DNA of 20,044 bases. Source: Aquificaceae bacterium (GTDB taxonomy: Bacteria > Aquificota > Aquificia > Aquificales > Aquificaceae). Of this stretch, positions 1 to 20,044 are shown in pieces. The notes beneath the pieces are model-generated. The model had not been told where the DNA came from and did not search any database. It worked only from the letters and a program-made list of their open reading frames with translations. A program made the position numbers and the translations under genes. Location of the stretch: positions 1 to 20,044 of the forward strand of contig JAXSMZ010000027.1 in assembly GCA_037924335.1 (NCBI GenBank), written 5' to 3'. Every line of letters starts with the position of its first letter. Within the stretch, counting starts at the first letter, position 1.

Positions 1-116
1 GTCCTGAATGTGGATATCAGGACAAGATGAACCGCGTAGGTGCGCGGTTCACAAGGGAGCTTATAGTCCCCTTGCCTGCTAAACCTCATTCTGTGGAATA
101 TTTTTCTATGGGATGA
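1..116 (+). pseudogene. tnpB: 3' end of an internally deleted TnpB-derived ORF (partial, runs off the window start)
   Basis: Frame 3 reads (C)PECGYQDKMNRVGARFTRELIVPLPAKPHSVEYFSMG*. CxxCG..K.NR resembles the first TnpB zinc-ribbon pair. The tail is nearly identical to the tnpB tail at 19921-20043, but the DAD catalytic motif and 5 codons (RNVLM) are absent. Confidence 0.65.
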
Positions 117-124
117 GGAACTAT
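5..124 (+). ncRNA. putative TnpB omega-RNA (reRNA) scaffold / element right end, family A copy 1
   Basis: 120/120 identical to 12214-12333. Stems: 28-36/43-51 (9 bp perfect), 52-57/69-74, and 84-98/104-118 (15 bp with 4 G-U pairs). Loop ATAGT (63-67) is complementary to terminal ACTAT (120-124), giving a possible pseudoknot. Confidence 0.7.
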
Positions 125-296
125 GCTTTACGGCTTTTTAACAACCATAACAGTGGGTGCATCCTATCACATAGTTCCTTTTCTACTCTGGTGGAAGGTT
201 TACGCCCCAAAGATGGGAAAGGAGAAGGTCTCTACCTTGAAAGAGATCCTTAACATAAAAGTTGCAAAGTTGCTCCTCCTGGCAATAAAAGCTTAG
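123..296 (+). pseudogene. 57-codon fragment of a membrane protein, probably interrupted by the element
   Basis: MLYGFLTTITVGASYHIVPFLLWWKVYAPKMGKEKVSTLKEIL... is hydrophobic and reads like an internal part of a real membrane protein. It starts exactly at the element boundary and its stop overlaps the speD stop. Confidence 0.5.
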
Positions 297-5135: not shown

Positions 5136-5262
5136 GTGAACTATCCTTCATTTCAATGAAGGGCTTCCTGCTTCAACGACAGGTGCCTCGTAGACCAAGC
5201 CATATAAGCTTGTTCCGCCGCCAGAGCTATCTTCACAGGCGTAAGTTCGGGCTGTTCCATTC
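5136..5262 (-). ncRNA. putative omega-RNA scaffold overlapping the tnpB 3' end
   Basis: TTACGCCTGTG...GTCGTTGAAGCAGGAAGCCC, then a hairpin, then TAGTTCAC. TGAA and TTCA are complementary (possible pseudoknot). The 5' limit is approximate. Confidence 0.6.
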
Positions 5263-5740
5263 ATACTTAATGCTATATATAGTAGATTTTTCGCTGCATT
5301 GATATATCTGTCATGCTTTGTTCTACATACAGGGCATGTCCACTCTCTGTCGTAGAGAGTCAGAGATGTGTTTTTGTAGCCACATTCACTGCAAAGTTTT
5401 GAGGATGGGTAGAACCTATCGGCAAAGATAATGTCTCTTCCATACCACTTAGCTTTGTAGGATAGAAAGGTCAAAAACATAGTCCAGCCACTATCGAAGA
5501 TGGCTTTGGATAATCTACCATTTTGAAGAAGACCTTTGACGTGCAGATTCTCTACCACTTGGTTTTCGTTGATAATAGTAGAGGAAAGTTTATGTAGAAA
5601 ATCTATCCTTTGATTTCTTACTTTCTCATGCAATTTTGTCACTCTTTGTGCTTGCTTTTGATAGTTCTTAGAATCCTTCTCTTTCCTGCTTAATTTTTTC
5701 TGTTGTCTCTTGGGAAGCCTCTCAGTCTTTAGTAGATACC
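5148..5740 (-). pseudogene. tnpB: C-terminal half of TnpB, N-terminus and RuvC-I deleted
   Basis: The open frame extends upstream of the ORF call (QKKLSRKEKDSKNYQKQ). It contains RNQRIDFLHKLS, VENL, PSSKLCSECG, WTCPVC and HDRYINAAKN, where the consensus is HDRDxNAA. Confidence 0.9.
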
Positions 5741-5841
5741 ATTTCCTAATGCTAAGGAAAATAGTTAACCTGTGGTTAACAGAAAGGCTTAGGCATTCAT
5801 AAAGTCTTTATAAATCAAGAACTTCAGAGGTTTAGCTTTCT

Positions 5842-11849: not shown

Positions 11850-12114
11850 ACGCCGAGTGAGAAATTCAAGAAAGCTCAGATACAAGCCTATCAATAAAAA
11901 GAGGCAGTAGGACTATAATTATTAGTCCTACAACCCTTAGGAGGTTATAACGTGGATATTTACTAACTTACATGTCCATCTAAAACAAAATCCTTCAAGA
12001 CTTCTTAAATGTGCCAAGAAATTAGCTCAACTTGAAAAGGACACAGAAGATAAAGAGGTATAGGAGAATGAGGTGAAGGAACAACGGCAGAATGCCTAAT
12101 TTCTCACCCGGCGT
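11850..12114. mobile_element. 265-bp MITE-like element bounded by 17-bp terminal inverted repeats
   Basis: ACGCCGAGTGAGAAATT (11850-11866) matches the reverse complement of AATTTCTCACCCGGCGT (12098-12114) at 16/17. No intact ORF inside and no clear TSD. Confidence 0.6.
11907..11931. repeat. 9-7-9 inverted repeat GTAGGACTA-TAATTAT-TAGTCCTAC
   Basis: Perfect 9-bp arms overlapping a TATAAT, followed by GGAGG at 11940-11944. Confidence 0.6.
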
Positions 12115-12135
12115 ATTAGAAACTAATCACTGAAT

Positions 12136-12173
12136 ATATAGAAGTTTATAAACGCATATAGAAGTTTAGAAAC
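12136..12173 (+). repeat. tandem direct repeat ATATAGAAGTTTA(T/G)AAAC x2 with 20-bp period
   Basis: Copies at 12136-12153 and 12156-12173 match at 17/18. Confidence 0.75.
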
Positions 12174-12184
12174 ATAAAGACCCC

Positions 12185-12212
12185 TTGACACTTTTGGTTG
12201 TATGGATATGTT
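12185..12212 (+). promoter_or_regulatory. sigma70-type promoter directly upstream of the stand-alone omega-RNA
   Basis: TTGACA (12185-12190), 16-nt spacer, TATGTT (12207-12212). Confidence 0.6.
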
Positions 12213-12213
12213 A

Positions 12214-12333
12214 TGAATGTGGATATCAGGACAAGATGAACCGCGTAGGTGCGCGGTTCACAAGGGAGCTTATAGTCCCCTTGCCTGCTAAACCTCATTC
12301 TGTGGAATATTTTTCTATGGGATGAGGAACTAT
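12214..12333 (+). ncRNA. stand-alone putative omega-RNA scaffold, family A copy 2
   Basis: Identical to 5-124, with no tnpB coding sequence upstream (in-frame stop at 12167-12169). Confidence 0.7.
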
Positions 12334-12358
12334 AAAATAATAATACATAAACTTGTCT

Positions 12359-12453
12359 GGCATAGACAGTAATCTATGCCCTACCGTTGGACCGACGGGA
12401 AGTTAAGCCCCCACAAGGGGAAGCTCCTCATTTGAGTGAGGAGAGGAGGTCAC
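12359..12453 (+). mobile_element. about 95-bp non-autonomous IS200/IS605 mini-element (PATE-like)
   Basis: Hairpin GGCATAGA-N6-TCTATGCC (12359-12380), then TACCGTTGGACCGACGGGAAGTTAAGCC...GGAAG, hairpin CTCCTCA/TGAGGAG (12424-12443) and terminal GGTCAC. The layout matches the right end at 5136-5262. Confidence 0.68.
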
Positions 12454-19912: not shown

Positions 19913-19993
19913 ATAGTTCCTCATCCCATAGAAAAATATTCCACAGAATGAGGTTTCGCAGGCAAGGAGACTATAAGCTCCCTTGTGAACCGC
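19913..19993 (-). ncRNA. omega-RNA / right-end core, family A copy 3
   Basis: 79/81 identical to 44-124. Shared sequence ends at GAGGAACTAT. Confidence 0.7.
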
Positions 19994-20043
19994 ATAAGAA
20001 CATTCCTCGCACCTACAATGTCTGCATCTTCCTCATATCCACA
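19921..20043 (-). CDS. tnpB: 3' end of tnpB (partial, runs off the window end)
   Basis: CGYEEDADIVGARNVLMRFTRELIVSLPAKPHSVEYFSMG* covers the zinc-ribbon end and the RuvC-III DAD..GA.N motif. Confidence 0.82.
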   Translation of the reverse strand, partial: CGYEEDADIVGARNVLMRFTRELIVSLPAKPHSVEYFSMG

Positions 20044-20044
20044 C

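Follow-up and report, generated by a model that had tools for sequence, protein, structure and literature searches.

A multi-copy, protein-less miniature of a tnpB-only element, very probably of IS607 type, with a pruned predicted omega-RNA

The first 124 bases of the window (the whole 20,044-nt stretch of DNA analysed here) very probably form the right-hand terminus of a miniature that encodes no protein, occurs in many copies and derives from an IS607-type tnpB-only element. The miniature has both ends, lies 3' of a host GTAT, has lost ~850 bp of tnpB and has spread to many sites. What remains of the gene includes a predicted omega-RNA whose long arm has lost its interior. Whether this RNA is used is a separate question, to which we give a more guarded answer.

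The short tail at the start of the window

Because the window spans a whole contig (G000:C27:1-20044, where G000 is the genome carrying it, C27 the window contig and C1, C4, C12 and so on other G000 contigs), base 1 is an assembly break. The residual tnpB frame reads PECGYQDKMNRVGARFTRE... from base 3 and comprises 37 codons plus a stop (3..116, forward strand). A preliminary description of this DNA had it running to the same stop as a sibling copy, and that stop indeed lies at 114-116; an NCBIfam search of the frame matched no family. Bases 1-124 are 100% identical to C4:55176-55299, the 3' end of a gap-free 297-bp element, and bases 5-124 are repeated exactly at 12214-12333. On the strength of this sibling identity, we read 1..124 (+) as the last 124 nt of a non-autonomous miniature element of ~297 bp that derives from tnpB, with the remainder beyond the contig start. 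The identity of this copy rests on its identical siblings because its own upstream DNA is absent from the assembly.

The right end of the element is ACTAT (120..124, +), with the transposon-encoded motif CTAT; here the alignment of copies stops and the flanks diverge. The host flank at 125..140 (+) is the predicted guide, a role assigned from TnpB biology, and would be expected to target this same site in alleles that lack the element. The C-terminal remnant of an interrupted host membrane-protein gene, ~380 aa in relatives, occupies 123..296 (+). The left part of the copy is unassembled, host gene residues 102-282 are missing from the assembly, and a search for exact contig-end overlaps returned none with the C27 start. 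The same host gene is interrupted twice, by the copy at 1-124 and by a different tnpB element at the end of C21, and a paralogue lies on C14.

Miniature copies in the genome

G000 has 23 right-end and 19 left-end matches. The short tail occurs in nine of the 23 right-end matches, none of them seen on a long ORF. Three of these copies are gap-free elements (297 bp on C4, 297 bp on C18 and 221 bp at window 12113), three others cross an N gap, and the last three are incomplete, C27:1 and C7:1 at a contig edge and C26 at an N gap. In both 297-bp copies without gaps, the last ~95 tnpB codons follow directly on ~80 nt of left end, a core deletion of ~850 bp that takes away the start codon and ~270 N-terminal codons; WED/REC and RuvC-I/II are therefore gone as well. 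Between the element ends of the gap-free copies (221-297 bp; C4, C18 and window 12113) there is no effector or transposase gene. The nine short-tail copies occupy distinct sites with unrelated flanks, and each has a different guide. Where G000 DNA extends upstream of the junction point, in three pieces (C13, C38, C28), it always carries the long, DAD-containing tail.

These observations bear on the earlier proposal that the tail belongs to an independent, full-length, nuclease-dead TnpB, a TldR-like repressor with a minimised scaffold. Removal of the Asp and the second zinc pair in frame is what such a protein might display, loss of the C-terminal ZnF/RuvC part is frequent among TldRs (10.1101/2023.11.30.569447), and the lack of assembled DNA upstream of 1-124 leaves room for one. 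Against this, none of the six short-tail copies with an assembled left side has a long ORF, of 300-400 aa or otherwise; what lies upstream in these six of nine copies is the left end of the element, 198-297 nt from the right end (across an N gap in three of the six). Transposon ends are present, the guides vary from copy to copy, a match over the whole of 1-124 was found in G000 only among 41 genomes, and a search for the hairpin pattern in viral contigs did not find it. We regard a TldR-like repressor as highly improbable. TldRs are described as keeping the TnpB fold without identifiable transposon ends (10.1101/2023.11.30.569447). The element resembles them in having lost ZnF and RuvC-III coding sequence, and differs in having no WED/REC protein, no fixed guide and no partner gene, and in retaining its ends.

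Two siblings lie within the window. The first is complete and gap-free at 12113..12333 (+), with the GTAT target at 12113-12116, the left end, the pruned tail and a further 76-nt deletion. Its promoter-like site at 12185-12212 (+), with hexamers read by eye, is the same as in the C4 copy, where the core-deletion junction leaves a site matching 10/12 (the scan of that copy gave 3 sites against 1.1 expected). The second, at 19913..20044 (-), has an unpruned tail and retains DAD and RNVLM, as the preliminary description stated. It overlaps the start of C12 exactly by 50 nt, and C12 holds a left-end junction 290 nt in; this sibling is probably a miniature element too, not an intact tnpB. A synteny check gave no confirmation of the C27-C12 join. 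For none of the 23 guides does G000 contain a perfect GTAT-adjacent target, which is also the chance expectation. ARAGORN reported no tRNA over the window.

Three mobile elements are nested at window 11850-12453. Another miniature-element family, bounded by ~19-bp terminal inverted repeats and with relatives on C5, C4, C22, C2, C26 and C38, is represented at 11850-12116; the GTAT target of the 12113 copy lies within its right repeat. A third repeat (12334-12453), with a tnpB-type hairpin right end and matches on C23, C30, C1, C4, C11, C8 and C2, is probably another standalone omega-RNA family. Elsewhere, window 5148-5800 (-) holds a truncated remnant of an unrelated tnpB.

The parent element

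The parent is a ~1.2-kb tnpB-only element that encodes a 367-aa TnpB and is inserted 3' of GTAT. Full-length copies are present in G017 (three), in G005 (three, of which one is frameshifted and two match each other exactly over 1166 nt) and in records of hot-spring Aquificaceae. Of 102 proteins, 10 were excluded by length; among the 92 near-full-length homologues, each of the nuclease's D, E and D residues is retained in 91, and by this reading of its residues the parent nuclease is intact. The G000 assembly lacks a whole copy of this tnpB and instead has a 5' piece with 233 aa open and a 3' piece with 218 aa open, on different contigs.

Close relatives of this TnpB (L055, L064, L060; P0003, P0011, P0017, P0024) are labelled across distant taxa, namely Anaerolineae, Thermodesulfobacteriota, Nitrososphaerales, Acidobacteria, Caldatribacterium and Aenigmarchaeota, a scatter that reflects either wide horizontal spread or binning error. 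At L033 (G017:C1:750300-751956), a tnpB element of another family has inserted into a Y1 tnpA and split it. At the right junctions of L015 and L021, both in G005, the last two bases of the element are the AT of the downstream gene's ATG (genes identified by reading), and insertion at a start codon may therefore leave the gene usable.

Deletions and their order

Relative to the parent, 69 nt are absent from the short tail, in the form of two in-frame deletions. The 54-nt deletion, between bases 35|36, removes the second CxxC and the Asp; alignment to the parent thus bears out the earlier view that the codons of the second zinc pair and the RuvC-III Asp had gone in frame. The 15-nt deletion, between bases 44|45, had also been recognised, as the whole of the loss, which it is not. 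A 9-nt piece is retained between the two, and siblings carry a third deletion, of 6 nt, further upstream.

The copies form a nested series, from C12 (core junction and parental tail) through C2 (plus the 6-nt deletion, with the core junction hidden under a 7-N gap) and C4/C18 (plus the 54+15-nt loss) to window 12113 (plus 76 nt). We infer that the core deletion came first, followed by the 6-nt deletion, the 54+15-nt loss in the long omega-RNA arm and amplification, an order that recombination among copies could blur. Because the series puts the core deletion first, the frame-preserving changes probably arose in DNA without TnpB production, which suggests that they postdate loss of the ORF. Still, all three small deletions (6, 54 and 15 nt) keep the frame, an outcome of 1 in 27 if they are independent; this counts against our explanation.

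In run X7, one contig covers the left end, the junction and the 6-nt gap at a depth of 83.1; the two short-hairpin joints, at 48.8 and 38.5, together come close to this value, depth being distinct from copy number. Short-hairpin joints are listed in X7 only (0 in X1, X4 and X5), and X1 and X4 also show a loose end at the left-end junction.

The predicted omega-RNA fold

Bases 1-124 fold at -57 kcal/mol (z -6.5), and 0 of 200 shuffles are as good. Between P0 and P2, the predicted fold of the parent tail has a rod-like arm of ~95 nt, and P3 follows; in the short form only the base of this arm remains, alongside P0, P2 and P3. All are on the forward strand. The predicted hairpin P0 (1..23) corresponds to helix 1, 96.7% paired in 15 parent-type tails. 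P1 (28..51) is the basal stem of the parent arm, re-closed by a 4-6 nt loop (helix 2, 99.2% paired, two-sided change at 2/8 pairs). The P2 stem-loop (52..74) has two-sided change at 4/6 pairs of helix 5, and its loop (63-67) pairs with 120-124 in a predicted pseudoknot (helix 6, 100%). P3 (84..118) is a terminal hairpin with two-sided change at 5/12 pairs. Over the 15 parent-type tails the whole structure is 96.4% paired, with two-sided change at 16/66 pairs, most of it from two pairs of related sequences. Its score exceeds 500/500 shuffles and all slid controls, the fold having been derived from the same alignment on which it was scored.

The loop of P2 pairs with the last five bases in 15/15 parent-type tails. 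Among distant relatives the exact pseudoknot partner is found in 7/9, two with two-sided change; in the remaining two, by our own reading, the pairing includes one G-U. An Rfam scan gave no family at gathering score and 2 chance matches.

The perfect stem of the preliminary description is real, a 9-bp stem at 28-51. It had been attributed to the changes in the tail; in fact 8 of its 9 pairs already form the covarying base of the long omega-RNA arm in the undeleted parent. In this model the hairpin is inherited and the interior of the arm is deleted, so the accompanying suggestion that an omega-RNA stem had been trimmed holds up. Pruning shortens the scaffold, from P1 to the end, from 166 nt to 97 nt.

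In the ISDra2 work, the 3' pseudoknot is described as the conserved omega-RNA core, and trimming of a distal stem kept or raised activity (PMC10097598). The element is like the engineered ISDra2 Trim2 omega-RNA of that study in that a distal stem segment gives way to a short loop while core and pseudoknot are kept. It is unlike it in TnpB family and fold, and the likeness of the stems is an analogy rather than a shown homology.

Ends, target and family

GTAT precedes 19/19 left ends in G000. Uninterrupted orthologues of the 1-124 site have GTAT and then the flank in 3/4 loci, and L042 matches 16/16. The GTAT is host-derived: at C8 and L072, keeping it once restores a gap-free alignment to homologues. 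The C8 site was settled at the protein level, and there a 3-nt core, which seemed the better fit at first, misaligns at the junction. In a tblastx comparison, four of nine foreign copies were spanned, two with a 4-nt core and two with shorter ones, and five were not; L072 alone among the nine is informative. Empty sites of the C2, C7, C15 and C8 copies were sought in the genus and gave no DNA alignment across the junction. From the end sequences and the empty-site reconstructions with GTAT once, there are no terminal inverted repeats and no target duplication.

TAT, not GG, is common to both ends and target in the G000 and G017 copies. The GTAT/CTAT junction suggests a branch of IS607 in which (T)AT replaces GG as the core. 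Three G005 copies start GTGT, which mismatches the right-end core and counts against this reading. As DNA, the left 90 nt fold at -2.7 kcal/mol, with no stable hairpin and no left-end palindrome; TATAGAA-like repeats are visible there by eye.

The transposase genes near relatives point the same way as the ends. In a phmmer scan with one query each, serine-TnpA-like ORFs occur in 14/79 viral loci with distant TnpB relatives, and 4/4 of those tested pass the IS607 cut-off. Nine of 12 examined distant-relative loci end in AACT(A/G)T. Serine TnpA (NF033518) has no copy in cis; it scores below cut-off in G000, G017 and G087 and above it in G005 and G094, and it adjoins distant TnpB relatives (25-35% TnpB identity). 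The close full-length parent copies inspected have no tnpA. We propose that a serine TnpA supplied in trans would move the element through the common (T)AT core.

An IS200/IS605 PATE of the classical kind, mobilised by a Y1 transposase, would also have a 4-nt target motif, no duplication and a tnpB-only parent, and the G005 copies lack the common terminal dinucleotide. We consider this origin unlikely, given a left end without a stable DNA hairpin, Y1 genes in 0/79 of the related viral loci and a Y1 element in G017 whose hairpin ends are unrelated.

G000 itself, an assembly without small contigs, has no TnpA of either type over cut-off. It has several tnpB families, and the element has clearly spread there all the same. 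A weak resolvase-like match on C6 is, by our own reading of its sequence, a MerR-type regulator next to dnaJ. We set aside GTAT upstream of tnpA in relatives as evidence, the word being too common to count.

Studied IS607 members are described with GG at both ends and target (PMC6188088; 10.1101/2023.08.09.552727). Like IS607 (PMC6188088; ISXfa1, 10.1101/2023.08.09.552727), the element has neither inverted repeats nor target duplication; in the G000 and G017 copies its ends match the target in their terminal bases, and the target motif departs from the element's end at the first base (GTAT/CTAT as GGG/CGG). Some of its distant relatives carry IS607 TnpA. Unlike IS607, its core is (T)AT and no tnpA accompanies it in the close full-length copies inspected.

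Discussion

Mobile standalone omega-RNAs acting in trans have been described (PMC10691335; 10.1101/2023.03.14.532601), as have deletion-derived PATEs (PMC3119063). Like the former and other PATE-like elements, the miniature has no protein gene, both ends, many copies, an omega-RNA at its right end and a compatible tnpB in the same genome. It is unlike them in lacking a left-end palindrome, in having ends of IS607 rather than IS605 type and in a scaffold internally pruned by 69 nt; trans activity is here a prediction. A literature search returned no paper on standalone TnpB guides with a pruned scaffold or on IS607 elements with GTAT, which is weak support for novelty because it matched exact words in open-access text only, and supplementary figures on PATE-like elements may already show pruned scaffolds.

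The pruned RNA may load the intact TnpB of full-length siblings and cut element-free alleles, which would favour retention of the element. That it may load TnpB in trans follows from the base of P1, P2, the pseudoknot and P3 all being kept. Use by TnpB in trans is possible on this model, though we would put it short of probable. Alternatively, still within our explanation, the trimmed arm is a neutral hairpin-associated deletion.

Pure decay, in which the element moves by its DNA ends only and the RNA is unused, is a reading towards which we lean slightly. Hairpins favour deletions. The long arm would then have been lost because its hairpins are deletion-prone. Several observations speak for decay and against function: a P1 pair is broken, without compensation, in 1/9 short copies (C7:1-122), and independent derivatives lose different parts of the fold, P1, P2 or more (C4:19330, C17:14307, L057, L058, L060, L089). 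Internal deletion of such elements is reported to be frequent (PMC3119063). On the other side, the amplified forms in G000 keep the RNA core. Only 9 of 176 uniform 69-nt deletions that spare the right end fall wholly inside the arm, which counts against pure decay; that 65 of the same 176 would leave the core intact counts against function. In an X7 variant, one P1 pair has changed on both sides and a second has become U-G, a single event whose letters are also parental polymorphisms. The promoter-like site at the junction also weighs against pure decay, within the background count given above.

Taken furthest, the functional reading would make the 297-bp element a selected guide-RNA cassette, with the -35 of tnpB and a new -10, a pruned but loadable scaffold and a sibling TnpB that defends each site. 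We find this doubtful. Were it true, it would offer a naturally minimised scaffold, a ~365-aa hot-spring TnpB, a GTAT motif and an IS607 branch with a non-GG core. The TnpB is probably thermostable, to judge by its hot-spring habitat.

The finding adds no new RNA-guided repressor, and standalone omega-RNAs are a kind already known. If the pruned RNA works, the element would provide a natural map of the dispensable parts of an omega-RNA, together with a compact guide.
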